A stretch of 64,000 bases of DNA from Torpedo marmorata (lineage: Eukaryota): NCBI GenBank assembly GCA_977017645.1, contig OZ360221.1, positions 204,848,001-204,912,000 on the forward strand, in the 5' to 3' direction. The notes under the pieces were generated by a model that was not told where the DNA came from, did not search any database, and saw only the letters and a program-made list of their open reading frames with translations. Positions 3,232-61,531 of this stretch are shown here, piece by piece. Position numbers and translations under genes: made by a program. The stretch's first letter is position 1. Each line of letters starts with the position of its first letter.

Positions 3232-5237
3232 ACTATCCCCAGCTTTATTTGTTCTAGCCATAGAACCACTTGCCCAGAAAATCCGTTCTGATTTACAAAT
3301 TAAGGGTTTTAGGATAGGTCAAGAAGAACATAAAATCAGTTTATTTGCAGATGATAATTTAATATATTTGACTGATCCTGAAATATCTTTGCAAAGATTA
3401 TATATTCAATTGGAGGAATATGGAAAGGTTTCGGGCTATAAAATAAATTTGGATAAAAGTGAAATAATGTCATTGACGGAAGGTGATTATACACATTGTC
3501 AGACAGGTACTCAGTTTAAATGGCCAAAAGAGGGTATTAAATATTTAGGTATACGTACAGATAGTAATTTGAAAAATTTATATAAATTGAATTATTCATT
3601 ATTATTTAAAAATTGATGAAGATTTTTTAAAATTGATTAATTTACCTATAACCTTAGTTGGAAGAGTTAATTGTATAAAGATGAATATATTTCCAAGAAT
3701 ACAATATCTCTTTCAAACATTACCCATTTCAATCCCTCAGAAATTTTTTCAATTAAATAAATATGTAAGAAAATTTCTATGGAAAGATAAAATGTCAAGA
3801 GTTTCTATGGAGAGATTAACTTGGAAATACAAATTAGGAGGTTTACAACTTCCTAATTTTAAAAATTATTATCGAGCTCCTCAAATGAGATTTCTTGCAT
3901 CTTTTTTCGAAGAAACAAAAGTAGCGTGGGTAAATATAGAACTGAACAAGATAGGAGAAAGGATAGCAGAAGATTTTATTTATAAATGGGAACCGAAATT
4001 ATTAACTGCTGCTAAAAGATACACCATTATTGAAACACCTACTTAATATTTAGAATAAAATAAAAGATGAAATTGGAATAAAGGGATCCATATCACCTAA
4101 AACGCCACTAAATCAAAATCCCTTTATAGCTTTTACAAAAGATAATCAATTTATGAATATTTGGCACCGTAATGGGATTGTAAATCTTGAAGATTGTTAT
4201 GAAAGAGGTCAATTAATGTCATTTTTACAGTTGAGGAACAAATATGCCATACCACAAAATACTTTCTTTTGTTATTTTCAATTAAAAGCATATCTGAGAG
4301 ATAAATTGGGACCAACTATGTCTTTACCTAGATGTAATGAAGTAGAACTTTTGATTAGGAGAGGAATTATTAAAAAAATTACTTCTAAGATTTATGAACT
4401 ACTACAAGCTGGAGCTCCTAAACAAGGGTTAAATAGATCTCGACAGAAATGGGAAACAGATTTAAATATTACAATTGATCAACAATTATGGGAAAATCTA
4501 TGTAAAGATTCTATGACTAATACTATAAATGTAAGATATAGATTAGTCCAATATAATTTTTTGCATCAATTACCGTATATTTAACACCACAGAAACTACA
4601 TAAAATAAAACCAGAATTATCTGACCAATGTTTTAGATGTGGTGAAGATGTAGGTTCTTTTATACATTCAACTTGGTCTTGCCCCAAGGTAAAAACCTTT
4701 TGGTTAGATATACAAAATTTGTTAGAACAAGTTACAGGAATTGTATATCCACAAACCCCTGATTTAGCTCTTTTAGGAAATATTGAGGGTGCAAGACCTA
4801 AATTGAAGCTATCAAATTATCAATTGGTATTTGTTAAATTAGCTTTAGCAGTAGTGAGGAAATGTATTGCTATGACTTGTAAATCCGATACATCCTTGGA
4901 TATGCAAAGGTGGCATGCTGAAATTCAAAGTTGTATTCCTTTGGAAAAAATTACATATAATTTGAGGAATAAATATTCTACTTTTTTGCAAATATGGCGC
5001 CTGTATACCCAAATAATGAGATTAAATTTGTAAAGAGGTTTTAAACACCTCCAGAACCGCGAGATCATCCTCTAAATGTATTTATATATGTTGAGATGTG
5101 TCATGAGCGGTGCTCCTCTATACAAACCAAAAAATTCTTTTTTCTTTCTATTTTCTTTTTTTTACATAGATATTTGTGATATAAACGCATATTTTGTATT
5201 ATTAAAAAATTTAAATAAAATATTTTTTTAAAAAAAA
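3232..5237 (+). mobile_element. 5'-truncated L1-clade LINE (RT C-terminal half, cysteine-rich domain, 3' UTR, A-rich tail), frameshifted
   Basis: SLFADD motif near 3340; ORFs 3368-5033 give GYKINLDKSEI, IKYLGI, GGLQLPNFKNYY, RYRLVQYNFLH; AATAAA and A-tail near 5215-5237. Confidence 0.9.
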
Positions 5238-7230
5238 CAAGATAGTGTATTAACCCCTTCAAAAAAAGATATAATAAATCTCATCTGCGCAGCTAAATAT
5301 CGGTAATAGTTTCTAAAGTTAGGTAAATGGAGACCCCCCAGTCTATAATCCCATGTTAATTTTCGTATAGCCCTTCTAGCTATTTTATTTCTCCATATAA
5401 ATCGCCCAATAATTTTATCCAAATTTTGAAAAAAAGATTTTGGTAAAAAAATAGGTAGAGACTGAAATAAATATTGTATTCTTGGTAGTATTTTCATTTT
5501 AACACAATTAACCCAACCAATCAAGGTAATAGGTAATGACATCCATCTCATTAAATCTTCTTCAATCTTACTAAGAAGTGGAGAATAATTAAGCTTATAT
5601 AAATTTTTTAAATCAGTATCTACCATTATACCAAGATATTTTATACTCTCTTTAATCCATTTCAACAAACCTACCGGTATACGTTTACATTCCGTACAGT
5701 CAAATTTAACCAATGGAATGACTTCGGATTTATCAAAGTTCACCTTGTATCCTGAAATCTCACCAAATTTTTCAACAATATTTGTAATTTAGTAAGAGAA
5801 TTAACCGGATCAGTCAAATACAGAATCACATCGTTGGCAAATAAATTTATTATATGTTCCACCTGGCCCATTTTAAAACCTTTTATTTCAGAGTCTAATC
5901 TAATCACTTCTGCCAGTGGCTCAATTGCTGGAACAAAAAGTCCAGGAGACAAAGGACAACCTTGCCGACTGGATCTATTCAAAGAGAAACTTTCCGAAGT
6001 CTGTCCATTAGTGGTAACCCTAGCTTGTGGTTTATAATAAAGTGTTTTAACCCAATTAATAAATGATTGTCCAAATCCAAATTTTTCCAGAACCTTAAAC
6101 AAATACGGCCAGAGATCTCCAATATCTTTTGATACCAGAGAAGAAAATGAATGTGTATAGATGGCGGTTAAACCCTACTTTACTTCATAAATCAGATTTC
6201 TGTAAATTTATTAGGGATCAGATAAAATTATTTAGTGAGACAAACTGTGCCTCTGTTCCAAACAGTTTTATTTTATGGGACACATTAAAAGCATATTTAA
6301 GAGGACAAATAATTTCATACACTAAGGGTGTTAAAAAGAAATATATGGCAGAATTGGAAACTTTAGAGAAGGAGATTTTAATAATGGAAAAAGAATATCA
6401 ACAAACTAAATCTATGGATACATATCAACATCTGGTGAATAAACTTAAATATAACATTATGGATACATATCGAGTTGAGAAAACAATTTTGAGAACAAAA
6501 TAAAGCTATTATGAACTGGGTGAAAAAACACAAAGTTTTAGCATGGCAATTGAAAGCACAAGAAAGTTCAATAACTATCAATGCAATTCAAAATGCACAA
6601 GGATTGATTACATATAACCCATCGGAAATTAATAAGGCATTTCAAAAGTTTTACATAGACTTGAATTCTTCTGAAATAACAAGTGATGATTCAAAGATTG
6701 ATAATTTTTAACTACTTTAAATTTACCTACAGTAGATAGAGATAGTCAAACGAGACTTGATCGTCCTTTCACACAGGAAGAAATTGAAAAGGCCTTGAGC
6801 TCGCTACAGGCGGGAAAATCACCGGGTGAAGATGGTTTTCCACCAGAATTTTATAGAGAATTTAAAGATTTATTGATGCCTTTTATTATGGACGTAATTG
6901 ATAGAGCAGCTCAAACACAAACACTGCCTGAATCATTTTCCTCTGCAGTAATTACAATAATTCCAAAGAAAAATAAAGATCCTTTGAAATGTTCTTCATA
7001 TCGCCCTATTTCACTTTTAAATGCAGATTATAAAATAATCTCTAAAACATTGGCTTAGTGATTGTTTACCGAGATTAATAAATCCAGACCAATGTGGTTT
7101 TATTAAGAAACGGTTTTCTTCCAATAATTTATGTAGATTTTTTAATATAATACATTTAGCAAAATCTAGAGGTGAACCAAGTATAGCAGTTACACTGGAC
7201 GCAGAGAAGGCTTTTGATAGATTGGAATGC
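5238..7230. mobile_element. L1-clade LINE with internal inversion (5238-6111 minus; 6112-7230 plus)
   Basis: The plus piece encodes WRLN..KSPGEDGFP..YRPISLLNAD..DAEKAFDRLEW. The minus piece resumes at (W)PYLFKVLEKFG..RQGCPLSP..LFANDV..GGLHLPNF. Confidence 0.85.
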
Positions 7231-7589
7231 CCACATATTTTTTACAAAACTGGCTTGACTTTAAATTTGTGCTTGATTTCACTTCAAACACAGACCCATC
7301 CCCGCCGGGTGGGATGACTGGGCCGGGAGGCTTGGTGACAGTACAACCTCGCTGCCCAACAATGTGGTCCCATCGCAGGACCAATCGCGAGGACAACAGA
7401 CCCGCCGTGGACGAGTGTGTTCTGCCCCACTGCCACCAAGCATGCCTACACATGCCCAAATGTCACGAGAAAATTACAATCTTTCTCTCTGCACTAGAAC
7501 ACCAAAAGACATAACGTGGCTCATTTAGTCTTGATTACAGTAAATCTTCAGCTATCGTATTTCAGCTGACCACCGAATCCAGTACTTGC

Positions 7590-7769
7590 CTTGACTGCAT
7601 ACACCTTATTCTTGGGGTGTTTTTTCCGACTCAGGTACACTTCACCGGAACGCCCCACGGCTGATGGGTTTGATAAGTCCTCGATGCTGGGGGCTGCCAG
7701 CACCTTGATTGCCTTCACATTCCTGTACGGGATGGCAGGACTAGCGTCATCAGTGCTGGGAACATCCAT
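7590..7769 (-). pseudogene. MASTL: Copy of MASTL/Greatwall kinase coding exon 1 (pseudo-exon, compensating frameshifts)
   Basis: Minus strand reads MDVPSTDDASPAIPYRNVKAIKVLAAPSIED / IKPISRGAF / GEVYLSRKKHPKNKVYAVK, then GCAAGT. It matches the recalled Greatwall N-terminus PSIEEFSIVKPISRGAFGKVYLG..LYAVK, whose first exon I recall ending at YAVK. Confidence 0.8.
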
Positions 7770-8214
7770 CTCCCAATCAGATCCAACAGACCATTCCCCG
7801 CCATTCCAATGGAACACGGGACGCCCTCCGATTGAACGCTGGCTCCCGTCTCGCGGCTCGCCGCGCAGCTGCTCTTTGAAACATTTTCAAAAGTTCTGCC
7901 GGCGCTGGGGTCCAGTCCATCAAAAACCGTCATGGCTCGGCGTGGGGGCGGGGCCGCCGCAGAGGGAGGGAGGCAAGAGGAAGGGAGGGAGAGGGGGGAG
8001 TGAAGGAGCTGGGCGCGGATCGAAAGGAGCGAATATGCGGTGCGGAGGGGGGGGGGGGGTGGAGTGAAGGAGCCGGGCGTGGGTCGGAAGGAGCGACTAT
8101 GCGGTGCGGGAGGGTTGTGGGCGCTGCCGGGCTGAAAAGGTGCTACTTTTGAAAAATTTGCTCAGGGGCAGTGGTCGCTCCCCCTGCTCCCCCCCAAGCT
8201 ACACCCCTGCCTGG

Positions 8215-8520
8215 CCGCCCTCCCATCCGAGCACCTGATGCCCTGACCACGGACTCTTGCCTAGGCCCCGGCCGTCCAGCTGCCCACCCACGGAGCTCCC
8301 GACGCCTTGAGCGCGGACTCTCGCCTAGGCCCAGGCCTCCCGCCTATCAGAGCTCCCAATGCCCCGATCGCCCATCCGAGTTCCCGACACCTCGACCGCG
8401 GACTCTCGTCTAGACCCCGGCCATCTGCCCATCCGAGCTCCCAACACCTCGAACGCGGACTTACCACTCAGTCTGGCCGCCTGTCTGCCCGCCCATCGGA
8501 GCTCCTAATGCCCCGAACGA
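8215..8520 (+). repeat. Imperfect GC-rich tandem repeat (core GCCCATCCGAGCTCCC..CCTCGA.CGCGGACTCTCGCCTAGGCCC)
   Basis: About five recurring units seen directly; a separate ~50-bp duplication lies at 7997-8048 and 8061-8110. Confidence 0.7.
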
Positions 8521-8819
8521 CACATATGTGTATGCGTGTAATAGTCGACCCCCTAAATTTTACCCTAAAAATTGATCCACAAAATTACACGCGTATATAC
8601 GGTATGTGTACTTTTTGATTATTGAAACTAATACAAATTAGCAGTTTAAAAACTACATACATGAATAAATATTATTAGGTACATGTATTTCTTAATATTT
8701 ATATAACATTTTTGGAACAAAATGTGCATGGAAGTGTAAAAATGTGTATGTATTATTTTTTCATGTCTTGCAGCTCTCAAACATCTGAAGTTTATCGTCT
8801 GAGGCTTTTACATTAAGCA

Positions 8820-9880
8820 AGTTTGGCCACCCCTGCTCCACAGCAACTGTACCACACTGCGTTGCAGTCGTCCAGGATGCTCTCGATCGAGCTCCTGTAG
8901 AAGGTTGACATGATGGTGGCCGGTAGCCTTGCCCGCCTCAGTCTTCTCAGGAAGTGCAGTCGTTGCGCATTCCTGACAAGTGAGGAGACGTTGTGTGTCC
9001 AGGATGGGTCACTTCTTAAGTGGACTCCGAGGAACCTGGTGCTCTCTACTCTCTCCACTACTGAGTTATTAATGTGTAGTGGAAGGTAGTCGACCCTGGA
9101 TCTCCTGAAGTCCACATTCATCTAATCATCTCCTTTGTCTTGTCCACATTGAAACTTGTTGTTCTCGCACCATTTCACGAGATTTTCGTTGTTGTTGAAG
9201 AAGCCAACTAATGTCGTGACATCTGCAAACTTGATGACTCTGTTGGAGCTGGATCTGGCGTTGCAGTCATGGATCAGTAGCGTGAACAGAAGTGGGCTGA
9301 GCACACAGCCCTGAGGTGCGCCAGTGCTCAGCGTGATGGTGCTGGATGTTCTGCTACCGACCTGGGCAGACTGTGGTCTTTACGTTAGGATGTCCAGAAT
9401 CCAGTTACAGTGTGGAGTCCCAGCGAGGCGTTGTTCTCCAGGTAGGTCAGGACGGAGTGGAGGGACAAGACTATAGCATCATCAGTGGAACGGTTCCGTC
9501 TGTAGGTGAATTGAAATGGATCCAATGTTTCTGCTTTGATGCGTTCCATCACCAGATGCTCAAAGTATTTCATAATGGTGGATGTCAGTGCCACTGAGCG
9601 GTAGTCATTGAGGCTTGTTACTGTTGCACACTTTGATACTGGGATAATGGTGGTTGTCTTGAAACCCATGTGGACGATAGATTGCTGCAGTGATGTGTTG
9701 ATGTCTGTAAGGACCTCAGTCAGTAGATCTGCACAGTCCCTCACTACCTGACCTGGTATGTTGTCTGGTCTCACTACCTGACCTGGTATGTTGTCTGGTC
9801 CCACTGCCTTGTGTGGGTTCACCTTGGATAGGGTTCTGCTCACCTCAGCCACGGCTATGCATGGGTCCCGTTCATCAGGG
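8820..9880 (-). mobile_element. Degenerate Rex1/Babar-like LINE RT fragment
   Basis: ORFs 9385-9852, 9122-9304 and 8813-9121 give GPDNIPG, YRSVALTS, LSPLLFTL, KFADVTT, RFLGVH. There is a 30-bp tandem duplication at ~9741-9800. Confidence 0.85.
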
Positions 9881-29259: not shown

Positions 29260-31080
29260 TGTTTAGGATATACGCAAGTGTGCGTATGATGTCATAACGC
29301 ATATGTATTGTATGCTGCGGGGAACCATTTTAGATTTGCAATAAAGAATGAATAAGGCACCACGTCTCCGTGTGCAAGTGTCTTTCTAAGCCTAGAATAC
29401 ACAACAGATTGGCGACGAGGATAAAAACGAACTTCTACACTCCGAACGTTGGAAGAAGATTGGAAGATTAGAAGGTACAACACAAGACGAAGACCACAGT
29501 AAGCCACACAGGCTGATGCACAGAGAACAAAGGAATGAAGACTCAAAATGGCAGAAGGACGTTTTGGAGAATTCAAAGAATCAGAAAGCTGGTATGACTA
29601 TGTGGAGAGATTTGATATGTTCTGTCTTGCCCATAATATTACAGATACACAGGCTTTCAGAAGGAAACAGGCACTGTTTCTAAGCGAAGTGGGAAGCAAA
29701 ATATATAAACTGATGAAATCTCTTTTGGCACCTGCGAGACCAAGTACAAGGTCTTATGAGGATTTGTGTGCAGTGGTAGGAGAATACCTATTGCCTAAAC
29801 CAGTAGTAATTGCAGAAAGATACAAATTTTATTCCAGAAAACAAAAAGCAAATGAAACTGTAAGCGAATATTTGGCTGAATTGCACAGACTGTCGGAAAG
29901 TTGTAATTTTGGAAAATTCCTGAACGAAGCATTAAGAGACAGGTTAGTCATGGGTTTGGCTGACTGCAATGCCCAGCAACGATTGCTAAGTAAGAAAGAA
30001 TTAGACATTAAGTCTGCGTATGATACCGCCTTAAGTTTCGAGATGGCCAGCCAAAACATGGATATCAAACAAGGAGAGACGCAGGTAATGGGAAAATTAA
30101 ACCAACGAGAATGCTTCCGCTGCGGAAAAAGTAACCACAGTCCAGATAATTGTTATTTCAAAAAAGCAAGGTGTCATCTATGTGACAAGAAGGGACACAT
30201 CAGAGCCAAATGTCCACGAAAAAGAGAAAGTGGAGGAAAGGAGAAAAATCAAACCCAAATACAAAAAAACAGTTGAAAAATGTGGGGGAGAAGGATGAAA
30301 GCCCGAGCAGTGAAACGAATGACTCCGAGTAAGACAAGGCAATGGAAGTAATGTATATTCGCAGTGTGATGGATAAGAAATCTGAAATTTATATCCATGT
30401 TAAAATCAACAATGAACCGCTCCGAATGGAGTTGGACACGGGAGCATCTGTGTCTCTTATGCCAGTAAATTTGAAAACAGGACTATTACCCCATCTTATC
30501 ATGAAACAGTCCGACATGGTGTTGAAAACGGTCACAGGAGAGAAAGTCAAGGTGCTTGGGAAATGTAAAGTAGACGTCGAGTACAAGGGACAGACATCGA
30601 ATAGATTACCCCTCTACATCGTGAACACAAAGGGGCCGGCGTTGTTTGGAAGAAACTGGTTGTCGCACATCCAACTGGATTGGATGGAAATTGGGTCAGT
30701 AATGAAGGTGTATGCTGAGGGTCAACCCAAATCGAAGGTGAAGCAAGTATTTGGGTATCAAATGATTTTTGCAAAAGGCCTGGGAAAAATTCAAGAAGTC
30801 CAGGCGAAGTTACAATTGAAACCTGAGGTTGAACCCAAATTTTATGCCAAGGACGGTACCTTTTGCAATAAAAGGAAATATTGAGTCAGAACTTAACAGA
30901 TTGGAAAACGAAGGAATCATTGAACGACTTCAATATAGTGATTGGGCAGCTCCCATCATGCCCGTCAGAAAACCCAATGGGGAAATTTGCATTTGTGGTG
31001 ATTACAAAGTCACCATTAATCAAGCTCTGCAAATACCGGAACATCCCATGCCCAGAGCGGAGGAGTTGTTTCAAGCCCTG
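29260..31080 (+). mobile_element. Ty3/Gypsy LTR retrotransposon 5' part (LTR end, tRNA-Ser PBS, gag, protease, RT start), truncated
   Basis: ACAACA end at 29406 and PBS TGGCGACGAGGAT at 29410. Gag 29548-30276 has two CCHC knuckles; protease LDTGASVS; RT WAAPIMPVRKPNG..CGDYKVTIN. The LTR start is uncertain. Confidence 0.88.
29548..30276 (+). CDS. Gypsy Gag (capsid-like region, two CCHC zinc knuckles)
   Basis: Open 242-aa frame with CFRCGKSNHSPDNC and CHLCDKKGHIRAKC. Confidence 0.75.
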   Translation: MAEGRFGEFKESESWYDYVERFDMFCLAHNITDTQAFRRKQALFLSEVGSKIYKLMKSLLAPARPSTRSYEDLCAVVGEYLLPKPVVIAERYKFYSRKQKANETVSEYLAELHRLSESCNFGKFLNEALRDRLVMGLADCNAQQRLLSKKELDIKSAYDTALSFEMASQNMDIKQGETQVMGKLNQRECFRCGKSNHSPDNCYFKKARCHLCDKKGHIRAKCPRKRESGGKEKNQTQIQKNS

Positions 31081-32175
31081 TGTAGTGACTTCAGTCCAAC
31101 AAATTGTCACTTGGAGGTGAGGTGAGATTGTAAGAGCCGTAGGATCAATAACTTACCTTGGTCGTGGTGCTCCGGTGCTTCGACGGGTTATGTAGGAGTC
31201 GCGGTGTCTGTAGGCCGTCCTCTGCCTGCTCTGTGCTCTGCACATGCGCTGGAGTGCCGACGGGCACATGCGCAGTCTGGAATTGACGTCATTGTGCGCG
31301 GTGTATTGTGGGAGATGTAGTGTGCGCAGTGGAATAGGAGCGATGGAGCATGCGCGAATCGGGAAGGAATAGGATAAGATGGCGATGTAGAAGGGTGAGT
31401 GAGATCGCCATATCTTTATTGAACGTTTCATAGCGTTTCATAGATCATTTCATCGAGCTTTTAAACTAGTTTATTTGTAGTTTAAAGTAGTTTAATTGAA
31501 CATCTGAATACAGTCAAAAGGAATCATTTAAAGGAACTCATCATACATCGTTTTCAAGAACTGTTTATATTAAAGTCATTGAAGATTACTGCAAGTCACG
31601 TGTGTAAATAAAGTTTTTGAACATATTGGACTTTGTTGGTAAATTAATTGAAACGCGTCAAAGACAAGTATCTCACTTAGCCTCCAGGTGACTATTGTTT
31701 GGATCGAAGTCACCATATTATAGTCAATAAAGATTGGATGTTTGGAACAGAAAATTGAAGGAAAGAAGATAGAATAATCTCTCTGTGCTTTGGACTGATA
31801 TTTAAAATAAAATGGTGGCCATCTTGAAGATGCCTCGAGTTGGGGGCAGTTTGTAATCCACATCCATCTGCCATGAGTAACAGCCAGAGAGGGATTTAAA
31901 GCTTCAAATCTTATAATAAAGTGTCCTATAAATACGTTGGAGAAACCATTTTTGGAAAATCAGTTATATTATTGACGGATGTTGTGGTTGAAACTCGTTT
32001 GTGGATAGCAGCACATTACAATCATTTGAAGTGGTAGGCATAAGTCTGTGGGCTCCTTCTGTGTATCTTTCGCAAGTAAGAACACAGATTGGAATTGCTG
32101 CCGCTGGTCCATTGGGGACTGTTGATTTGGCTAGTGTTGTGTATGCTTGAAGGACAGAGGAACAAGACGAGTAAA

Positions 32176-34898
32176 ATGGCCGCAGCAGCCTCTGATACAG
32201 CAGCTACTGATGTATCAGCAGCTGACGCAGCAATCGCTGATGTTGCTGTTGAGGACCAACGTATTGAAGACATGAAGATTGCGGATATTAAAAGAATTGA
32301 AGCGACTGAAAAAGGACATAAGTGGAAATAAAAAGGTTCTTATCGCAAGATTGAAGCTGGCAAAGGATGAAGAGGCAGCTTCATTAGATGAACAAGATGA
32401 TAACTTGGAAATGGCTGAAATTGTGTCACCAAATGATGAAGAAAATGATGAAGATATTGAAGAGGTTGAAGATGCAAAGGATATACAATTCAAATTGGAT
32501 AGAGGTAAGTATGAAGACAACATATGAACTGCAGGACGAAATACAAGCAAGTGACAGTGTCTCAAATGCTGAAAGCAGGAGAAGCAAAAGAAGTTCTGGT
32601 TCGAGCTCCAGAGTTTCTCGTACTTCAAGTTCTGCATTGTCACGTACAAAGATTGATGTTAAATTGGCCGCTCTTCTTGCACAACAAAAAACGCTTAAGG
32701 ATAAATTTATTTTAGAACAAGAGGAGGAGCAGCTAAGACAAAAGGAGGAGCAGCTAAGACAAAAGGAGGAGCAGCTAAGACGAGAGAAGGAGCAGCTAAG
32801 GCAGAGAAAAGAACAGCAGGAGCTGGAAGCAAACATTGCTATTGCCAAGGCAGAAAAGAAAGCAATAAAAGGCTCAATGGTATCTGGTGCTGGAAGTAAA
32901 TTATCTAAATTGTCTGATAATAAAAGGTCATATTTAAAAAAAGGAGTCACAGGAAAAGAAACCAACCAAAAGGATAGATATTTTAAGAACCAAGGATACA
33001 AAACTTGCATATACAAGGACAAACCTTTCAAGAGCATATTGGTATCGAGTCACATGTACCAATGGTAACATCTGAAAGCAAAGCTGCGGCTTGGGTTCGG
33101 TCGAACGAAGCAGCTTCTTTGTTATTTAAGTCAAGCATCAGAAATATGGAAGAAACTACACCAGTGAAGTTTCCAGATACATTGCGTGCAACAAGAGACG
33201 GTGAACAGAGCAATGTATTGTCATCCAAGGAAAGACAAAATGAAATTGCTGCATCATTGTTTCAGTTACAGTCTCTCTCTTCTTTACCCAAGAAAGAGAT
33301 ACAAACTTTTGATGGTGATCCACTTCAATATCAATCATTTATGAGATCTTTCAAACGCAATATTGAAGATAAATGCCAAGATCGTGATGAATGTCTTTAT
33401 TATTTGGAAATGTTCACAAAGGGACATCCAAAAGAACTGGTAAAGAGTTGTAAACAAATGTCTTCAGAAAGAGGATCAGACAAAGCTAAGGCTTTACTGG
33501 AACAATATATTGGCAACAAGCATCGAATTGCTTTAGCTTATATGGATAAAGCTCTTAAATGGACATCAATAAAACAAAATGATGTAAAGGCTCTGCAAGA
33601 ATATACTCTGTTTTTAAGAGGATGTTGTAATGCTATGGAAGAAATCGATAATATTCGTGAGCTTGAAGTGCATAGTATTATGCAAATCATCTTAGAAAAA
33701 TTACCTTACAAATTATGGGATAGATGGAGAAATTTGGCTTGTGATTTACAAGTAAATTACGGTCGAAAAATTACCTTAAAGGATTTGGTAAATTTTCTTG
33801 AACGACAGGTGTACGTTGAAACAGATCCACTATTTGGAATACCAGAGATAATTCAATGGGCAAAGATGTAAGGAAGTCTAACACACAGTCTAGTCTGAAA
33901 TTGAAAAGGAGTACTTTTGCTACTAATGTGTCAGTTATAAGTAAAGAAAAGGACAAAGTAAATAAGGAAAAGGAAAGTTTGCCTGATGAAAAGAGTTGTT
34001 TGTTCTGTAAATGTGGACATGCTTTGGAAATGTGTTTACGATTGGAAAAGAAGGAACATAAGGAGAAGATCGCTTTCTTAAAGGAAAATGGAATATGTTT
34101 TAGCTGTCTGTGTAAAGGGCACATCAGTAAAAACTGCAAAAGCAAATTAATTGTAACATATGCAATTTGAAACATCCTAGAATTTTGCATATCCATAACA
34201 GAAACAAGGAATTGGAAAAGGAGCAAACAGAAACAAAGGAAACAACAGAAAATAATGTTATAACCTCGGTTCAGACAAGTGGTCTTACTGGGGTCGGTGT
34301 GGATAACTGCAAACTTTCGATAGTGCCTGTACAAGTCAAGACCAAGAAAGGGGATGCAATAGTAAAAACATATGCATTTCTAGACCCAGGCAGCACTGCA
34401 TCTTTTTGCACGGAAGGACTAATGAATAAACTTAATATTCAAGGAAGAAGGTCAAGAATTATGTTAAAAACCATGGGACAAGAAAAGGTTGTTGATACTA
34501 ACATTGTTTCAGGCTTAGAGGTTGCTGGATTGAAAGACAAAAAATGTTGTGATCTTCCAAGTTTATATACTCAGAAGACTATGCCTGTGCATGAAGGAAA
34601 TATTCCTCATCAAAAGGATATCCATCATTTAGCTTATCTGTGGAAGGTTTATTTACTTGAAATTAATTCTGAGATAGAAATGCTGATTGGTTCAGATGTG
34701 CCAAAGACTTTGGAACCACAAGAAGTAATAGAGAGTAAAAGGAATGGACCTTACGCTATTAAAACCAAGTTTGGTTGGACAATCAATGGACCACTGGAAA
34801 GAAATAATGATATTGCTCAGGAACAGTTAGCGATAAATATTAATAGAATTTCGGTTGTGAAAGTTGAAGAGTTAAGCGAAGAGCAAAAAACTGAATAA
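32176..34898 (+). pseudogene. BEL gag-protease polyprotein, frameshifted, with N-terminal SAP-like motif
   Basis: Pieces in ORFs 32089-32331, 32279-32527, 32388-33068, 33005-33871, 33856-34170 and 34167-34898. Confidence 0.85.
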
Positions 34899-37520: not shown

Positions 37521-38299
37521 AAAGGTTGATCAAACTACAGTATATTTCGGCATATAAGTCGAGTCTTGAAACCCTCATCTCAAAATGGGGGTCGACTTAT
37601 ACGCCAGATATACTTTTGAGAAATTCAGCTCAAAAACCGCTCCACGCTGATTCGGCGTATAAGTCGACCCTTGAAAACCCGATTCGGTGTATAAGTCGAC
37701 CCTTGAAAACCCCAAAAAAACCCGACTGCAACAAATTTTCATTGAAAACAACAACACATTTAGAACCTTTCAAAATCACTTTTGCTATCATCGTCTGAGG
37801 CAAAGATCTCCGCAAGCACATCCGGGGTCTCACTGTTTAAACAGTCATCATACGGGTCCCAGTCTGTATCTGATGAGGCGGCTTCAGCTTCGTCGTCAGT
37901 GTCCCACAATAAATAATCTTCCGCACCATCAATTGCACAAGAGATACCGCACTTTTTAAACGACCGGTATTTTATTAGTCTCTACTTTCACTTTGTCCCA
38001 TGCCTTGAGCACGAAGTCACACAGCACATCAAGCGATGCGGCACGCATTGCCCTGCCTTTTGTAAATGATTTTTCTGCACTCGACACCCATGTATTCCAC
38101 TCTTCACGCACATGGTCTTTGAATGGCTTGTTCAAGCAGACATCGAGAGGTTGCAATATAGACGTCAAACCACCTGGGATAACCGCCATGTAAGTATTAT
38201 GTTGTGCTAATCTACTTTTAGTCTTCTCAGTTAAGTGGCTACGAAACATATCCCAGACCAGCAAACTCCGTTCCTTGCGTAAACCGCCTGGCCGCCTGT

Positions 38300-41200
38300 T
38301 CAGAATCAGAATTTATTGTCATGAACAAGTCATGAAATTCGGTGCTTTGCGGCAGCATCATAGTGCAATTAACATTCATATTAACCATTCTAACGACATT
38401 ACTATATAAAATTATAAACAATAGTGCACTAGTGTCTTTGGTTCATTGATTGTTCAGGAATCTGATGGCAGCGGGGAAGAAGCTGACCTTGTGCCGTTGA
38501 GTGCTCGTCTTTAGGCTCCTGTACCTTTTCCCCGATGGAAGCAGCGTGAAGAGGGCATGGCCTGGGTGGTGGGGGTCCTTGAGGATAGAGGCTGCTTTAT
38601 TAAGACATCGCCTCATGTAGATGTCCTCGATGGAGTGAAGTTTGGTGCCCGTGATGTCACAAGCCGAGGTAACAACCTTCTGGAGTTTGCACTTGTCCTG
38701 GGAGTTGGCACCACCATACCAGGCAGTGATGCAACCAGCTAGAATGCTCTCCACGGTACACCTGTAGAAGTTCACAAGAGTCTTTGGCGACATACCGAAT
38801 CTCCGCAATCGCCTCACAAAGTATAGCCGCTGACGAGCCTTCTTTGTGATTGCATCCACGTGGATGCTCCAGGACAGATCCTCGGAGATGTTGACACCCA
38901 GGAATTTGAAGTTCTTGACCCTCTCCACGACTGAGCCCTCGATGAGGACTGGGTTGTGTTCCCCTGACTTCCTCCTGAAGTCCACAATCATCTCCTTGGT
39001 TTTACTGACGTTGAGCTCGAGGTTGTTGTCATTACACCATTCAATGAGCTGATCTATCTCCCTCCTGTACGCTTCCTCATTGCCGTTTGTGATTCTGCCG
39101 ACAACTGTGGTGTCATCGGCAAACTTGTATATGGCATTGGAATTGTGCCTGGCCTCACAGTCATGAGTGTATAGCGAGTAGAGCAGTGGGCTAAGCACAC
39201 ATCCTTGGGGTGCGCCTGTGTTGATAATCAGTGAGGAGGAGACGTTGTTTCCAATTCGTACTGACTGTGGTCTTCCGATGAGAAAGTCAAGGATCCAGTT
39301 GCAGAGTGGGGTACAGAGGCCTAGAGTTTGTAGCTTCTTGACCAGCACTGAGGGAATAATGGTATTGAAGGCCGAGCTGTAGTCTATGAAGAGCAGCCGT
39401 ATGTATGAATTGCTGTTTTCGAGGTGATCCAGAGCTGAGTGGAGAGCCAGCGATATTGCATCTGCTGTGGAGCGATTGTGACGATAGGCGAATTGCAGTG
39501 GGTCCAGGTCTTTGCTTAGGTATGTGTTAATTCTGGTCATGACCAGCCTCTCAAAACATTTCATCACCGTAGAAGTTAGTGCTACTGGGCGATAGTCGTT
39601 GAGGCAGCTCACACTACTCTTCTTGGGCACCGGGATGATTGATGCCCTTTTGAAGCAGGTGGGAACCTCTGACTGCCGCAATGAGAGGTTGAAAATGTCC
39701 GTGAACACTCCGGCTAGTTGGTTGGCGCAGATTTTCAATACCCTGCCAGGTACGCCGTCAGGGCCTGACGCCTTGCGAGGGTTCACCCTCTTGAATGATG
39801 TTCTGACGTCGCCCTCAGAGACAGATATCACAGGGTCCTCTGCCCTCTCAGGGATTCTATTAGGCACCGTTTTGTTCTTCTTCTCAAAGCGGGCATAGAA
39901 GGTGTTCAGCTCATCGGGTAGTGAAGCATCACAGCCGTCTATAGTGTTCCCTCTCGTTTTGTAGGCTGTAATGGCCTGCACTCCCTGCCATAGCTGCCGT
40001 GTATCTGTCTCTGTCTCTAGCTTCCTTCGGAATTGCCACTTTCCTTCAGAGATGGCCTTCCGCAGGTCGTGCCTGGACTTTTTGTAAAGATCCCGGTCCC
40101 CTTCTTTAAACGCCCTTGTTCTCGTCCTCAGCAAGTTGCGAATTCTTTGATTCATCCAGGGCTTCTGGTTGGGGAACACCCGGTATTTGCGCGTGGGCAC
40201 ACACTCATCCACGCAGGTCTTGATGAAGTCGGTGACACTTGTTGCATATTCATTTATGTCTATGGCTGAGTGCTTGAATATGTTCCAGTCCACCGAGTCA
40301 AAGCAGTCCTGCAGACGCTCCTCCGCCTCCCTTGACCACACTTTCGCTGTCCTCTCCACTGTTGCTGTGGACTTTAGTCTCTGCTTGTACGCCGGGAGTA
40401 GAAGTACAGCCAGGTGATCAGACTTGCCGAAGTGCGGTCGTGGTATGGCTCGGTAGGCGTTCTTCACGGTGGTGTAGCAGTGGTCAAGTGTGTTGGTTCC
40501 CCTGGTCTCGCAAGTGACGTGTTGGTGGTAGTTTGTCAGTGACTTCTTCAGGTTGGCCTGATTGAAGTCTCCCACAATGATCGGGAAGGCATCAGGATGT
40601 GCTGTCTCATGGCTGTTTATCACAGTGCTCAGTCCCTCCAGTGCCAGCCTGACGTTAGCCTGGGGCGGAATGTACACTGCGACCAGGATGATGGCGGTGA
40701 ACTCCCTCGGCAGATAGAATGGGCGACACTTGATCGCCAGATGTTCTAGGTCGGGGGAGCAGGACTGGGACATGATCGTCACGTCTGTGCACCACGATGA
40801 ATTGATGATGACACACACGCCGCCTCCCCTGGTTTTTCCAGACGCCGGTGTTCGGTCAGCGCGGTGGAGGGTGTAGCCCTTGGGCTGTAGCGCCGTGTCC
40901 GGAATGTCCTTGTTTAGCCACGTTTCTGTGAAGCACATCACGCAGCACTCCCTGATGACTCCCTGATATTGAATTCTGGCTTGGAGTTCATCAAATTTGT
41001 TCTCCAAGGATTGAACGTTGGCCAGTAGGATGGTAGGGAGCGGAAGCTTCAGGTCCCCCCTTCTCAGTTTGACCTGTAGCCCCCCTCTGCGTCCCCGTGG
41101 TCGGGACTTCTTTACCTGGCCCTTGGATCCGCGTCTACGTGGTCGGGGCTTCTTTACCTGGCCCTTGGATCCGCTGCCGGTAGGTCCCGCAGTGTTTAAA

Positions 41201-41581
41201 CGGACGGTGCGCTGTCCCTTTAAATCCTGCGCGATTTGTAATTGTGTTGATTGCCTGCTGTCTGCGGCTCCCGCGAAGTTTGAACGGCCCGTTCTCTGGC
41301 CGTTTAAAACTCCCGCGGTGCCGCAGCTGCTGTACCTGCGTGATTTGATTGGAGGTCCCGCGGCCCGACGGAGACTGCAGCTGTACCTTCGTAAGTTCTT
41401 TAAAGGTCCCCCGGTTCCGATTCCGAGTTCTTCCAGCGATCTTTGGACATCCCCGTTGTAGGGTAAGTATGTTTTTGTGTTCGTTCTGATTTTTAGGAGT
41501 TCTGACCAGGAATACTTGATTATTCCCGTCAGAGCTGCTCGCAAAGAGTCGCCGGTGCAAGGCGCCGGTGCAAGGCGCCAT
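38300..41581 (-). mobile_element. Apparently full-length Rex1/Babar-like LINE
   Basis: 5' ATGGCGCC start, single long ORF, 3' AATAAATTCTGATTCTGA tail; inserted in the pogo transposase between WIDN and NRRPGGL. Confidence 0.9.
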
Positions 41582-41592
41582 TGTCTATCCAT
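38443..41592 (-). CDS. Intact APE endonuclease-reverse transcriptase ORF (1049 aa)
   Basis: NVQSL..FTETWL..GDFN..SDH (APE); [38 protein letters not shown]; C-terminal LPSGKRYR; no stops. Confidence 0.9.
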   Translation of the reverse strand: MDRQWRLAPAPCTGDSLRAALTGIIKYSWSELLKIRTNTKTYLPYNGDVQRSLEELGIGTGGPLKNLRRYSCSLRRAAGPPIKSRRYSSCGTAGVLNGQRTGRSNFAGAADSRQSTQLQIAQDLKGQRTVRLNTAGPTGSGSKGQVKKPRPRRRGSKGQVKKSRPRGRRGGLQVKLRRGDLKLPLPTILLANVQSLENKFDELQARIQYQGVIRECCVMCFTETWLNKDIPDTALQPKGYTLHRADRTPASGKTRGGGVCVIINSSWCTDVTIMSQSCSPDLEHLAIKCRPFYLPREFTAIILVAVYIPPQANVRLALEGLSTVINSHETAHPDAFPIIVGDFNQANLKKSLTNYHQHVTCETRGTNTLDHCYTTVKNAYRAIPRPHFGKSDHLAVLLLPAYKQRLKSTATVERTAKVWSREAEERLQDCFDSVDWNIFKHSAIDINEYATSVTDFIKTCVDECVPTRKYRVFPNQKPWMNQRIRNLLRTRTRAFKEGDRDLYKKSRHDLRKAISEGKWQFRRKLETETDTRQLWQGVQAITAYKTRGNTIDGCDASLPDELNTFYARFEKKNKTVPNRIPERAEDPVISVSEGDVRTSFKRVNPRKASGPDGVPGRVLKICANQLAGVFTDIFNLSLRQSEVPTCFKRASIIPVPKKSSVSCLNDYRPVALTSTVMKCFERLVMTRINTYLSKDLDPLQFAYRHNRSTADAISLALHSALDHLENSNSYIRLLFIDYSSAFNTIIPSVLVKKLQTLGLCTPLCNWILDFLIGRPQSVRIGNNVSSSLIINTGAPQGCVLSPLLYSLYTHDCEARHNSNAIYKFADDTTVVGRITNGNEEAYRREIDQLIEWCNDNNLELNVSKTKEMIVDFRRKSGEHNPVLIEGSVVERVKNFKFLGVNISEDLSWSIHVDAITKKARQRLYFVRRLRRFGMSPKTLVNFYRCTVESILAGCITAWYGGANSQDKCKLQKVVTSACDITGTKLHSIEDIYMRRCLNKAASILKDPHHPGHALFTLLPSGKRYRSLKTSTQRHKVSFFPAAIRFLNNQ

Positions 41593-42689
41593 AGTTTTAC
41601 ACCATTTTCATCCATGCATCCTTTTTCATGAAAATGTACAAAAATACCCACAGGGAATTTTATTTTAGGTTTAAATTTGCATTTGAAGATTACCATGGGT
41701 CTTAACTTTGTCCTGTCGGCCATGCACGATAACACCACGGTAAACCTGGTCCTTTCATGGCCTGTACTCCTGGTTTGCACAGTTTTCACACCTTTCCATT
41801 CCACTGTTCTATTGCTATCATGTCGAAATTCATGGGGGTTTCGTTCATGTTTCCAATATTTGCCAATGCATACTTGTGTTTCTGCTGGTTACGTATAATA
41901 AACTGGTGAAAACTTACAACTTTATGATCAAGATCTTTTGGTAGTTTCTGAGGAATTTTAGTTTTTTGTAGTAATACCAGATTTTTCCTGTTCATGAAAC
42001 GGTTGCACCAGCCTACTGTAGCTTCAAAATCATTACTGAGTTTTGGGTGTGACTTTGCCCACTTCAGTGCAAATGTTCTTAATTTATTTCGGGTGACTAT
42101 GTAGCAATCTTGCCTCTGTTCACGTACCCATGCTGCAACATAATTTTACAACTCTGGCCAACGAGTGATTCCTCTTCTCATCGAACATTGCCTTTTTGGT
42201 ATCTTTCTTAAAGTCTCTTCTTTCTTCCTCCAATCTCTTACCAACTTCTCATATCAAATTTTCTTGCAGCAGCACAGTTGTTGGTTTTCTTGGCTATTTC
42301 TATCACTTTTAATTTAAAACTCGCCTCATACTTTTGTCGTTTCAATGGACCCTCCACGATAACAATCACCTCCAGCTAACGCCCAGCAGCTCAATCATCA
42401 CGATTTTTGGGGGTCGACCTATACGCCGAGCATCTCAGGCCTCGCGATTTTTTGGGGGTCGACTTATACGCCCGATATACAATAAAACCATTAAAATGTG
42501 GCTGAAAAAGGGGGGGTCGACTCATCTGTGGGCCAACTTATACATCGAAATATACGGTAGTTCCTTTGAATTGAAGTATTTTGAAATATAGAAATAATTA
42601 AAAATGATTTTTCTTTGTTTAACTGGTTTTACAATGTCTGGGTTAGTTTCTATACACTGTGTCTTAACATATCTGTTTTGCTTTCATAG

Positions 42690-57290: not shown

Positions 57291-57867
57291 CTATACTCCA
57301 GATGGAGCTTTCTTTCTAAGCAAATTTGTGAGAGGGAGCGCAAGATCATCAAAGTTTTTACAGAACTTGCGGTAGTAGCCAATCATTCCCAGGAACCTCC
57401 TCAGAGTTTTCTTACCAGTTGGAACAGGGAACTCGGAAATAGTCAAAACCTTTGCCTCTACTGGCGCCAACTGCCCCTGTCCTACTACATAACTCAGAGA
57501 ATTAACAGTCCCATGACCCTCTCTGAAACTGGCTTTATCTGTCTCCTCCTTACCCCTGTCAATAACCAGTCCCTCTGGTAAATGTTCAGTCTCTTTGTGT
57601 GGCACCTGTTCAAAATATGGCTTAATCATATTCACATGACAGACCTGTGTGTCTCGTCTGCGATTAGGTGTTTCTATGATATAGGTGACATCATTAATTT
57701 TTGACTTAACTCTATAGGGTCCTGAAAATCTAGCCCTAAGAGGATTTGAATGGATGGGAAACAGAACTAATACGTTCTCACCAGGTTTAAAAGTTCTCAT
57801 CTTTGCCTTTCGATCATACCAAACCTTCATTCTCTGTTGAGTGGCCTTTAAATTCTCCTTTGCCATC

Positions 57868-59586
57868 TCAAGCCCTATGTAACTGATCCTTAAATTTGGA
57901 AACATAATCTAACAGATTTAAATGCACATCACTATTAATCCACTGTTCTTTTAATAATCTTAAAGGACCTCTCATCTCATGTCCGAAAACTAACTTGAAT
58001 GGACTAAAACCAAGTGATTCTTGGATAGACTCCCTCGCTGCAAATAACAACAAATGAAACCCCTCATCCCAATCCTCTTCCTTTTCACAACAATAGGTTC
58101 TAATCATGTTTTTCAAAGTCGAATGGAACCTCTCCAAGGCCCCTTGACTTTCTGGATGGTACGCAGAGGATACAATCTGTTTAACTCCTAGTCCATCAAC
58201 CACTTGTTGGAAAACGCCTGACATGAAATTACTGCCCTGATCTGATTGAATTTCTCTTGGCAAACCTACCAAGGTGAAAAACTTTGCTTTAATGTTTCTC
58301 AGAGGAATGGCCTCTGGAAATCTGGTGGCTGCACACATAATTGTTAACAAATACTCATTCCCCGTTTTGGTTTTGGGCAATGGGCCAACACAGTCCACAA
58401 TTACTCTCGAGAAAGGCTCACTGAAAGCAGGGATAGGTTGCAAGGGTGCCACCGGGGGACCCTGATTAGGTTTACCCACCACCTGACAAGTGTGACAGGC
58501 CTGGCAAAAGCTTACAACCTCCCTTCTCAAATTGGGCCAATAAAATTGTTTCATTATCTTCCTTATAGTTTTCTTCACCCCAAGGTGACCACCTAAGGGT
58601 GTACTATGAGCCAAAGTTATTATTGCATTCCTATATACTTTAGGGATCACAACCTGCTGCACTACTGCCCATTCTTCATTGGCAGGAACATCACATGGTC
58701 TCCACTTTCTCATCAACACCCCATCTTTTTCATAATAACCCACTGGCACCTTTTTAATCTCCTCTTCAGAGAGAACCTTATCCCTCACCTCAGCAAGATC
58801 AGGATCGTCCTTTTGCCTTGCTATTAGCTCCTGTCGGGATAGTGACAAATCTGTGCCTTTAGGTGTCTTATCAGTGGATGGGTGTAACACAGAAGATTGC
58901 TCAACCTTTTCCAGGTTTTCTTGATTATCACTGTCTTTTTCTTTCACCATGTTATTTTCCACTGCCTTCTCTACAGTGAGATTTTTCTTAGACATGGCCC
59001 TGGTTATGCCACATGCTGGATAAATATCAGAGTCTTTCTCTGACTTCTCAATGACTGGCTTAGTGGTCATTCGCACTGCAGGAACTACTTTACCCTTGGC
59101 CAAGTCATTGCCTAACAACAGTGAGACTCCTTCTACTGGCAACTCTGATCTCACTCCTATTATAACAGGTCCTTCCACCAAGTCTGAGTCCAACACTATT
59201 TTGTGCAAAGGAATGGACTCAACATCACCACCAATTCCTTTAATTAAATTTATGTCACCGGTGTCAGTAGCTTCACAAATTTCCAAGACACTATCTAATA
59301 CAAGTGACTGAGCAGCTCCAGTATCTCGCAAGATTTTCACTGGAACTTGTTTTGATCCTGCCTTAACTGAAACAAAACCATCAGTCACAAAAGGTTTAAA
59401 TACATCTTTAACTTTGTCAGTAAATTTATCTCCTTCCTGGGTGTTATGCCTCTTCTCACTCTGAATACAAGCATTAGGTGTTGCATCCTTTTCTCTCTTC
59501 TTTTTCAACACTGGACAGCTTGCTAGCATATGACCAGCCTTCCTACAGTAGTGGCAAATGGGACCCGAATGGTTTTCCCTTTCCAC
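57868..59586 (-). CDS. Gmr1-type protease-integrase open frame (572 aa)
   Basis: Continuous frame from the zinc knuckle through the integrase DDE core. Confidence 0.75.
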   Translation of the reverse strand: MERENHSGPICHYCRKAGHMLASCPVLKKKREKDATPNACIQSEKRHNTQEGDKFTDKVKDVFKPFVTDGFVSVKAGSKQVPVKILRDTGAAQSLVLDSVLEICEATDTGDINLIKGIGGDVESIPLHKIVLDSDLVEGPVIIGVRSELPVEGVSLLLGNDLAKGKVVPAVRMTTKPVIEKSEKDSDIYPACGITRAMSKKNLTVEKAVENNMVKEKDSDNQENLEKVEQSSVLHPSTDKTPKGTDLSLSRQELIARQKDDPDLAEVRDKVLSEEEIKKVPVGYYEKDGVLMRKWRPCDVPANEEWAVVQQVVIPKVYRNAIITLAHSTPLGGHLGVKKTIRKIMKQFYWPNLRREVVSFCQACHTCQVVGKPNQGPPVAPLQPIPAFSEPFSRVIVDCVGPLPKTKTGNEYLLTIMCAATRFPEAIPLRNIKAKFFTLVGLPREIQSDQGSNFMSGVFQQVVDGLGVKQIVSSAYHPESQGALERFHSTLKNMIRTYCCEKEEDWDEGFHLLLFAARESIQESLGFSPFKLVFGHEMRGPLRLLKEQWINSDVHLNLLDYVSKFKDQLHRA

Positions 59587-61531
59587 TTTCCTTCATCCCT
59601 TTCCTTAACACCACTTCCAAATTTACTTTCCACTTGCTTCTGATTATCCACAGTGACCTTTTGGAAAATTCTGCCTGACGTCCACTTAGGCTTGTGGGTT
59701 AAAGCATATTCATCTGCTAACTTACCTGAATTTTGCCAAGTTTTCACCTCCTTTTCATCTAAGTATGCCTTAATATCCTCAGGAACACACCTTTTTATCT
59801 CCTCGATTATTATCAATTCTCTCAATTGATTGTAATCATGGTTTACTTCCTTAGATGTGCACCACCTGTCAAAACACACAACCTTCTCATAGGCAAACTC
59901 TGTATAAGATTGGGTTGCTGATCTTTTTAAATTTCTAAACTTCTGTCTATAAGCCTCTGGAACTAACTCATAAGCCTGGAGATAGCCTTTTTCACTGTTT
60001 CACAATCAGCAGCTTGCTCCGTGGTAAGAGTAGAATAAGCTTGCTGAGCTTTTCCTTTTATTACACTTTGTAACATAAGAGACCATTGACCTTGTGGCCA
60101 TTTTAATTTCACAGCCACCTTCTCAAAATGTTGGAAGTACTTATCTATTTCTGCCTCCTCAAATGGAGCAACCAACCTAACTTCTCTACTAGCCAAAAAC
60201 CCCTCAGCAGGATGACGAATTTGATCTTGGTGCTCTTCTTGTCCCCTCTCATTTTCCAACTTCATCTTTTCCAGCTCATATTTCCTATTTTTCTGATCGT
60301 TCTCTAAGTCTAATTTATTTTGTTCCAATTCCATGTCAAATTTCTTTTGTTCCAATTCCGTGTCTAATTTCTTTTGTTCCCTGGCTGCCTCCAATTCTAA
60401 TTTCTTTTGTTCCCTGTCTGCCTCCAATTTCTTTTGTTCCAATTCCAATTTCTTTATTTCCAATTGTATGTTTTCAGAAGGTTTACCCTTGGGAAACTGC
60501 TCTCACAGGCTCCCCTCAAATTTTTTTTTCTTTTATATAGTATTTGAGAATTTTTCTCCCAATCTCTGCCCTTTTCATAGATGCTTTTACAGAAGCAATG
60601 CCCCACCCTGTTGCTATAGCCACTAACTGTTCCTTTTTCGCCTTTTTTAAAGCATCAGGTTCAGGTGATTCCAAAAAATGTTCTACATCCATTGTTGCTG
60701 GTTTTTCATTACACACACGCTAGCTTTTAATTAGCTTTACAAAAGGAATGTCTTAAACCAAACTGGGATTCCTTCAATTACCAAATGGATTTTGATTCAA
60801 ATCCCGGACGAGCCCCCAATTTTACTACAAAATCAAACCAGCAACGACAGAAGATGCAATGCAAAAGGGGTAAAATTGAAATTATTATTTATTAAACACA
60901 AGTAAACATATAATTTCACAACAATTAACCCCACTATAAACGTCAATAAACACTATTCTTATCTAAAAGGTGTGTGTGTGTAAAGCCCAGACCATTACAG
61001 TCTGTGCCCAACCCTTATGTAAAAATGGAAAAACTTTCCCCAAAAAACCCCAGGTCAGTCATAAAAACAAGTCAGTCAACAAAAAGAATAATACAGTCCA
61101 CAAAAATTCACTCTCAGTTCAGGTTTCAAATTCAGCTCTGTGTGCTGGTAGAAGTACTTCTGAATGAACGATGGAGAGAGACAATGACTGTTTATGCTTA
61201 CAAATACTTGGCTTGTTTTTCTTCTTTGATGACGTTCCCTTCTTGTGTTTTCATAAGGATTGCGAATTCAGATCAGTATACCACTGGTTTAGGCGTGTGC
61301 TTGGATCTCACAGCTGGTCTCGCTGATCTCACGCCTGTTCTCCACAAAAGTTGCTTTACCTCAGAATTTCTCTGAGACAGGAGGCCATGTGCTATTCTTC
61401 CAGCCTTTTCTCTGGGATGCACAAGCCTGGATTTGGCTGTGCTCTCCAGCCTTTGCAACTCCAATCTGCCTGCTTTTTTCATAGGTCTGCACCTGCTTTT
61501 GCAAAAGTGCAACAAAGTATCTTTTCCACAG

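Follow-up and report, generated by a model that had tools for sequence, protein, structure and literature searches.

A 64,000-nt stretch of the Torpedo marmorata genome (hereafter the window; C5:204848001-204912000, where C5 is our code for the contig that bears it, in a searched genome of 6.22 Gb) is best explained as containing one copy, shortened on the left, of a non-autonomous hAT transposon with genomic DNA of the MASTL 5' end as its cargo, and we place the probability of this explanation as a whole at about 0.85. Window positions 7434-7913 match the MASTL gene of the same genome from -138 to +328 relative to the ATG, at 87.7% identity. Comparison with this parental sequence resolves the match, on the minus strand, into captured upstream MASTL DNA (7770-7913, parent -138 to -1), the coding part of MASTL/Greatwall exon 1 (7590-7769, 180 nt, with its ATG at 7769-7767), and the captured start of MASTL intron 1 (7434-7589, parent +186 to +328), which opens with the native GC donor (AAG/GCAAGT), the GCAAGT lying directly after the exon copy at 7589-7584. 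Relative to the parent, the exon copy carries a 7-nt deletion and a 1-nt insertion that break its frame. Because the cargo comprises upstream DNA, an exon and the beginning of an intron, it was captured as DNA, in agreement with the Pack-MULE-like capture that the first-pass annotation had proposed from the same 180-nt minus-strand exon and donor. Two other elements of that annotation hold only in part. Of the GC-rich sequence placed upstream of the exon, 7770-7913 derives from MASTL, but 7926-8209 belongs to the hAT element and 8210-8604 to a pogo-type MITE; of the presumed intron continuation, 7434-7589 is indeed MASTL intron 1, whereas 7228-7433 is inner element DNA of non-MASTL origin, common to subfamilies A and C of the hAT family. 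The remainder of the element consists of a GC-rich subterminal hAT region (7926-8134) that includes a 64-bp tandem repeat and also occurs in non-MASTL subfamilies, and a terminus common to all subfamilies (8135-8209, minus strand) that ends in a 16-bp TIR at 8194-8209 (CAGGGGTGTAGCTTGG on the minus strand). Positions 8210-8217 are the likely right copy of the target-site duplication (TSD), the other end being absent from the window copy: the element is cut at 7228, so that ~185 bp including the left TIR are missing.

The broken frame of the window yielded no match as a homology query, and no Pfam family was found for the window ORF. A sister copy with an open frame (L003) matched human Greatwall with E=1.5e-10, with the next kinase at 7e-4, and was 74% identical to skate greatwall, the thorny skate protein being the best relative of the fragment; MASTL is thus the best match, as initially annotated. 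Further kinase exons, of which the annotation had likewise seen none, are absent from the 64-kb window and are located instead at the parental locus, 130 Mb from the window copy, where exons 2-5 (C5:74,255,359-74,249,516) were located using skate MASTL residues beyond exon 1. At this locus exon 1 is intact (C5:74,269,716-74,269,901), has the same GC donor as the copy, and is followed by a GC-AG intron 1 of 14,356 bp starting with GC at C5:74,269,715; thorny skate greatwall exons match this host gene at 76-100%. The fragment is therefore not the real MASTL locus, a possibility raised at the outset, but one of many copies of part of it. The CpG observed/expected ratio is 1.05 in the cargo versus 0.51 across the 40-kb parental locus. 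Two TTTGAA motifs (-122, -111) and two ATTGG motifs (-41, -8) precede the parental ATG and are part of the captured DNA; we take them to be CHR motifs and CCAAT-boxes, respectively. A DREAM review (PMC5729532) names MASTL in a gene table, as far as the text was available. Inspection by eye of 3 kb upstream of MASTL revealed no head-to-head neighbour exon. The longest cargo, that of subfamily B, spans -441 to +328 (6 of 60 loci), while those of A and C span approximately -138 to +328, the 3' boundary at +328 being common to nearly all copies.

Copies of the MASTL cargo number at least about 150, and probably several hundred. A DNA search returned 520 candidates, of which the best 40 were scored, all at 85-100%, and a protein search returned 568, of which all 150 scored (parent included) reached E<=5.2e-29; these candidate counts are not copy numbers, and matches on small contigs are partly redundant. 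Cargo copies in the DNA search were 85-92% identical. The unit common to cargo loci stops at window 8209 in the hAT-type TIR, and element ends take the form CAG(G/T)GGCGTAGC(C/T)AG(G), with imperfect TIRs of ~16 bp. Scoring of 30 MASTL loci with 1.5-kb flanks identified both TIRs in 21, all with an 8-bp TSD at <=1 mismatch; since six loci have one TSD in common, these correspond to 16 distinct insertions. An 8-bp TSD (<=1 mismatch) was also found in 26 of 32 closed non-C copies selected by their TIRs. The hAT signature, as given in the available part of a published account, comprises short TIRs and an 8-bp TSD (PMC3942097). The present family has TIRs within 10-25 bp, an 8-bp TSD, and a hAT transposase between identical ends, and it also shows the features of a Pack-TIR, namely a non-TE interior with a parental locus, capture at the DNA level, and transposition after capture as indicated by distinct TSDs.

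Six loci with one TSD and flank in common, and many matches on small contigs, could be read as the product of segmental duplication or assembly artefact, and gene fragments can also arise as processed pseudogenes or through retro-transduction. We consider all of these very improbable here, given that promoter and intron are present with neither exon 2 nor poly(A), that TIRs and 16 distinct TSDs are distributed across many large contigs, and that identical junctions occur in contigs from four independent public runs. These runs, filed under four organism codes, yielded contigs that cover the cargo stretch with the same junctions; in one (X7), 13 contigs depart at 7433 into a B-type flank, and further contigs span the A-type junction. 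The presence of the junctions in four runs suggests that the capture is older than the split of their organisms. None of the runs on record as holding the stretch was listed as RNA, which says nothing on expression either way, and the one run taken as possible RNA may be DNA. The six loci mentioned above (L018, L020, L025-L028), mostly on small contigs, represent either a more extensive duplicated segment or redundancy in the assembly.

The first-pass annotation had attributed the cargo to a pogo derivative, bounded on the right by a pogo TIR and expected to show TA duplications. A pogo-type CCGTATA end does lie at 8602-8604, 395 bp to the right of the hAT end, but it closes a separate, older pogo/Tigger-type MITE (8210-8604, minus strand, by family comparison) that served as the target of the hAT insertion, the common unit having already ended at 8209. 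The pogo end is absent from 29 of 29 other cargo loci, and MASTL or hAT DNA was found in 0 of 19 other pogo-family loci; furthermore, the TSDs are 8 bp rather than TA, and the best listed matches of the pogo family (5,053 candidates) are 70-79% identical, compared with 85-92% for cargo copies. Capture of MASTL exon 1 by a pogo derivative consequently has a negligible probability, and the hAT element is retained as the carrier. Five of the 19 other pogo loci extend as far as a TIR of Charlie type that corresponds to window 8835, which indicates that the window is nested, with a Charlie-type MITE enclosing the pogo MITE and the latter enclosing the Pack-hAT. The right part of this outermost hAT MITE occupies 8605-8835 (minus strand; TIR CAGGGGTGGCCAAAC), Charlie being the label we assume for it and for the second carrier described below. 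Everything left of 7228 has been replaced by an inverted L1: an L1-type LINE ORF2 in two inverted pieces (5228-7227), broken at ...FDRLE/W..., adjoins and truncates the element in an arrangement suggestive of a twin-priming-like inversion. Neither the window nor the 10 kb before it contains the missing left hAT end, its TSD, or the left-hand portions of the pogo and Charlie MITEs. Elsewhere in the window, a 1,054-aa stop-free LINE endonuclease-RT-like frame (38443-41607, minus strand) lies between pogo-type transposase pieces (DDE_1 and HTH_Tnp_Tc5, at 37956-38312 and 41529-42145), and LTR-retrotransposon gag/pol-like fragments were recognised by eye at 29539-31125, 32388-34898 and 57291-60502.

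A genome search with a 29-nt pattern of the left hAT end produced 738 matches at <=1 mismatch, and none with a reversed control. Of the 100 perfect matches listed, 97 were examined, treated as 94 loci with a four-copy array counted once; these loci revealed MASTL in 34, transposase in 7, a reticulocalbin-like gene in 7, a kringle gene in 4, FKBP4-like sequence in 2, and aminopeptidase in 2, with further interiors D, E, F and G in 9, 10, 6 and 11 loci, and 10 matching none (classes overlap). Scaled to 738 ends, ~270 would carry MASTL. Some of the D, E, F and G interiors (L161, L180, L158, L130) are GC-rich and could represent promoters or UTRs captured from other genes. At L152 (C5:117.777-117.785M), four left ends of subfamily F are arrayed in tandem at 1.8-kb intervals.

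A 4,838-bp TIR-closed copy contains a broken hAT transposase (DUF4371, Dimer_Tnp_hAT), and Pfam searches of L147 and L181 identified PF05699 (E=9.7e-14) together with PF14291, again in broken frames. No intact autonomous element was found among 150 scored transposase matches, a 589-aa open frame being left out of this count. Subfamily B retains 45 bp in common with the transposase 3' end region, a remnant that points to its origin from a deletion derivative. Among 61 subfamily ORFs, Pfam matched three (two transposase, one kringle), and no family was found for 55 ORFs from D, E, F, FKBP4-like, aminopeptidase, L148, L184, L112 and the other L108 frames; one L108 frame was searched against the PDB with no match. 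Separately, the nearest proteins found for the transposase region L181:1732-2925 (C22:159.32M) were 'ZMYM1-like' proteins of turtles with PF01352, presumably a KRAB domain, at 81% identity across 398 aa, versus 44% to a coelacanth relative, a disparity that suggests horizontal transfer together with host-transposase fusion in turtles.

Of the 94 loci, 33 have the TSD CTCGCTAC and its flanks in common. These subfamily C loci sit within a 2.4-3.2-kb element with Charlie-type TIRs, which is itself flanked by distinct 8-bp TSDs in 10 of 12 loci and whose empty form gave 302 matches (control 0). One TSD and its flanks inside a separately transposed carrier indicate a single MASTL-bearing Pack-hAT insertion re-amplified by another hAT. 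The carrier (L072 / L069-L080) has an interior segment of ~1.3 kb that looks LINE-like by eye when translated, and a tandem repeat in the carrier expands to several kb in L070.

Besides MASTL DNA, the family carries fragments of other genes: at least five multicopy gene-derived cargoes were identified, every one a gene 5' end, and for four of the five (MASTL, reticulocalbin-like, neurotrypsin-like and M1-aminopeptidase) parental loci with downstream exons were found. The M1 aminopeptidase (aminopeptidase N-like) cargo comprises ~1 kb of upstream DNA, exon 1 and the intron start; the best 40 of 74 candidates were scored, and 6 of 12 loci were closed with a TSD at <=1 mismatch. Its parent (C2:311.09M) is intact, without hAT ends, and has exon 2- and 3-like frames downstream. 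A second candidate for this parent, at C47:81.43M, was ruled out by its TIR and broken frame. For the kringle-gene cargo (best 40 of 126 scored; 9 of 12 loci closed), the parent at C1:79.35M has an SRCR exon downstream, and we therefore call the gene neurotrypsin-like, on the assumption that kringle plus SRCR reflects the neurotrypsin architecture. The first coding exon of an EF-hand gene, which we take to be reticulocalbin/calumenin-like, gave 24 matches, and its parent (C50:47.42M) has EF-hand exons; the occurrence of its upstream piece in subfamily D also indicates that cargoes have been mixed. FKBP4-like exon 1 (E=0.0016 over 25 aa) had ~17 long matches, with the left TIR in 11 of 12 loci, and ends at GVLK/GT. 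No FKBP4-like parent was found in the host genome. Two candidates were examined and rejected, C54:36.88M because of a family TIR and C48:48.02M because it is rearranged. Both the FKBP4-like and aminopeptidase cargoes retain donors and intron starts, and other cargo is associated with distinct TSDs.

Most likely, an open, CpG-rich promoter supplied, through gap repair or template switching at a fork, the DNA that filled a hAT deletion derivative. MASTL DNA was likely acquired once, by template-switching repair inside the element, and the MASTL-bearing element likely spread in trans by means of the family transposase, with inner pieces subsequently lost or swapped to give B, A and C; methylation, CpG loss and extinction of the family may have followed. 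At the MASTL junctions, microhomology amounts to 0-2 nt, which is uninformative, and subfamilies A and B diverge right after +328, so that the capture step itself is one that we infer. An alternative that we regard as rather unlikely overall is composite transposition, in which two hAT ends flanking a gene 5' end moved the intervening DNA. It is possible above all for the kringle cargo, in whose copies host DNA stops exactly at the inner TIR of a 130-bp mini-element, with similar inner TIR-like ends in L112 and L182. Family ends also occur near genes, one of them lying 12.7 kb upstream of parental MASTL exon 1, but no family TIR was found within two 10-kb stretches around that exon, nor did any of the four parental loci show a family end where its cargo begins or stops. 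Moreover, MASTL subfamily B lacks an inner TIR and possesses the transposase 3' remnant, and excision of the cargo would damage the parent unless followed by sister-strand repair. We accordingly favour capture by repair inside the element, at least for MASTL.

Substitution patterns suggest that the copies decay about neutrally and are most likely passengers rather than a protein-coding family. For 26 subfamily C copies compared with the column majority, rates at non-CpG sites were 79/3386 (0.0233) for nonsynonymous, 21/917 (0.0229) for synonymous and 112/5463 (0.0205) for non-coding positions, while 184 of 1418 CpG sites had changed (0.130), corresponding to ~six times faster decay. The copy tree is star-like. 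Frameshifts affect 6 of 26 C copies and 14 of 18 A copies, subfamily A having spread with a common frameshift; 14 of 457 sites, of which only 2 are exonic, distinguish the A majority from the parent. That copies are maintained for a function, either as dispersed cell-cycle promoters or as short peptides, appears distinctly improbable. Stop-bearing copies are in mild deficit (1 versus a rough expectation of ~5, across four sets that partly overlap), and among 30 copies TTTGAA is retained in 26, ATTGG in 30, the ATG in 26 and the donor in 25; however, such motif retention is expected at 2-3% divergence, and it is set against equal nonsynonymous, synonymous and non-coding rates, roughly sixfold CpG decay and the spread of a frameshifted subfamily.

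We tentatively suggest that this family may be a vertebrate counterpart of Pack-MULEs, in which promoters and first exons were repeatedly captured, recombined and hitch-hiked on other elements to yield hundreds of modules, some of which might start chimeric transcripts; we hold this broader proposal to be well short of an even chance. If true, modules of promoter, ATG and splice donor, with MASTL contributing a cell-cycle promoter, would have been seeded across a cartilaginous-fish genome. The many junctions offer material for testing models of capture, and a bias toward open CpG-rich promoters, in a vertebrate, and the hundreds of dispersed promoter, exon and donor modules provide an avenue for testing whether TIR elements build new transcripts. 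Copies of this kind can also give rise to spurious gene models, to kinase expansions that are not real, and to mis-mapping at MASTL in shark and ray genomes.

Among known systems, plant Pack-TYPE elements are non-autonomous TIR elements that carry GC-rich host gene fragments and are often multicopy. Pack-MULEs are defined by a Mutator transposase, long TIRs and a 9-bp TSD, whereas both the ends and the transposase of the Torpedo family are of hAT type; the family works like a Pack-MULE but is none. Bat Helitrons carry host promoters and exons at high copy, and are thus similar in their high-copy capture of host fragments in a vertebrate, but differ in being rolling-circle elements with neither TIRs nor TSDs. 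In the available portion of an account of rice Pack-MULEs (PMC5861414), these are likewise non-autonomous TIR elements with GC-rich gene fragments, often multicopy, and the mixing of pieces in some Torpedo subfamilies is a further likeness; they are, however, plant Mutator elements with reported expression and translation, whereas the present family is a vertebrate hAT analysed here at the DNA level. The transposase domain content (DUF4371 plus the hAT dimerisation domain) matches BuT2 of the Tip group, to which the family may belong; within the accessible part of the source (PMC3942097), BuT2 and Tip100 have this domain pair, short TIRs and an 8-bp TSD in common with the Torpedo family.

No report of this hAT family was found in the literature, and it may exist as an unnamed repeat in Repbase or Dfam, which lay outside the search. 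Capture of genes by cut-and-paste transposons is regarded as an uncommon and mostly single-copy event in animals, and the portion available to us of a survey of 100 animal genomes lists four multicopy Pack-TIRs and no Pack-TIRs in the elephant shark, the one cartilaginous fish that it covered, its authors calling the list highly conservative (PMC8277862). Pack-TIRs, including hAT ones, are thus known in animals, and capture on the present scale by such transposons in vertebrates was not found reported. The closest likeness in the same source, as far as available, is Xenopus hAT-N8_XT with the CAPSL 5' UTR (PMC8277862), which also has hAT ends, host 5' DNA, distinct TSDs, GC-rich cargo and a location far from the parent. 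It comprises 3 copies, whereas the Torpedo family has at least about 150 MASTL copies, coding exons from five genes, and re-amplification by a second element.
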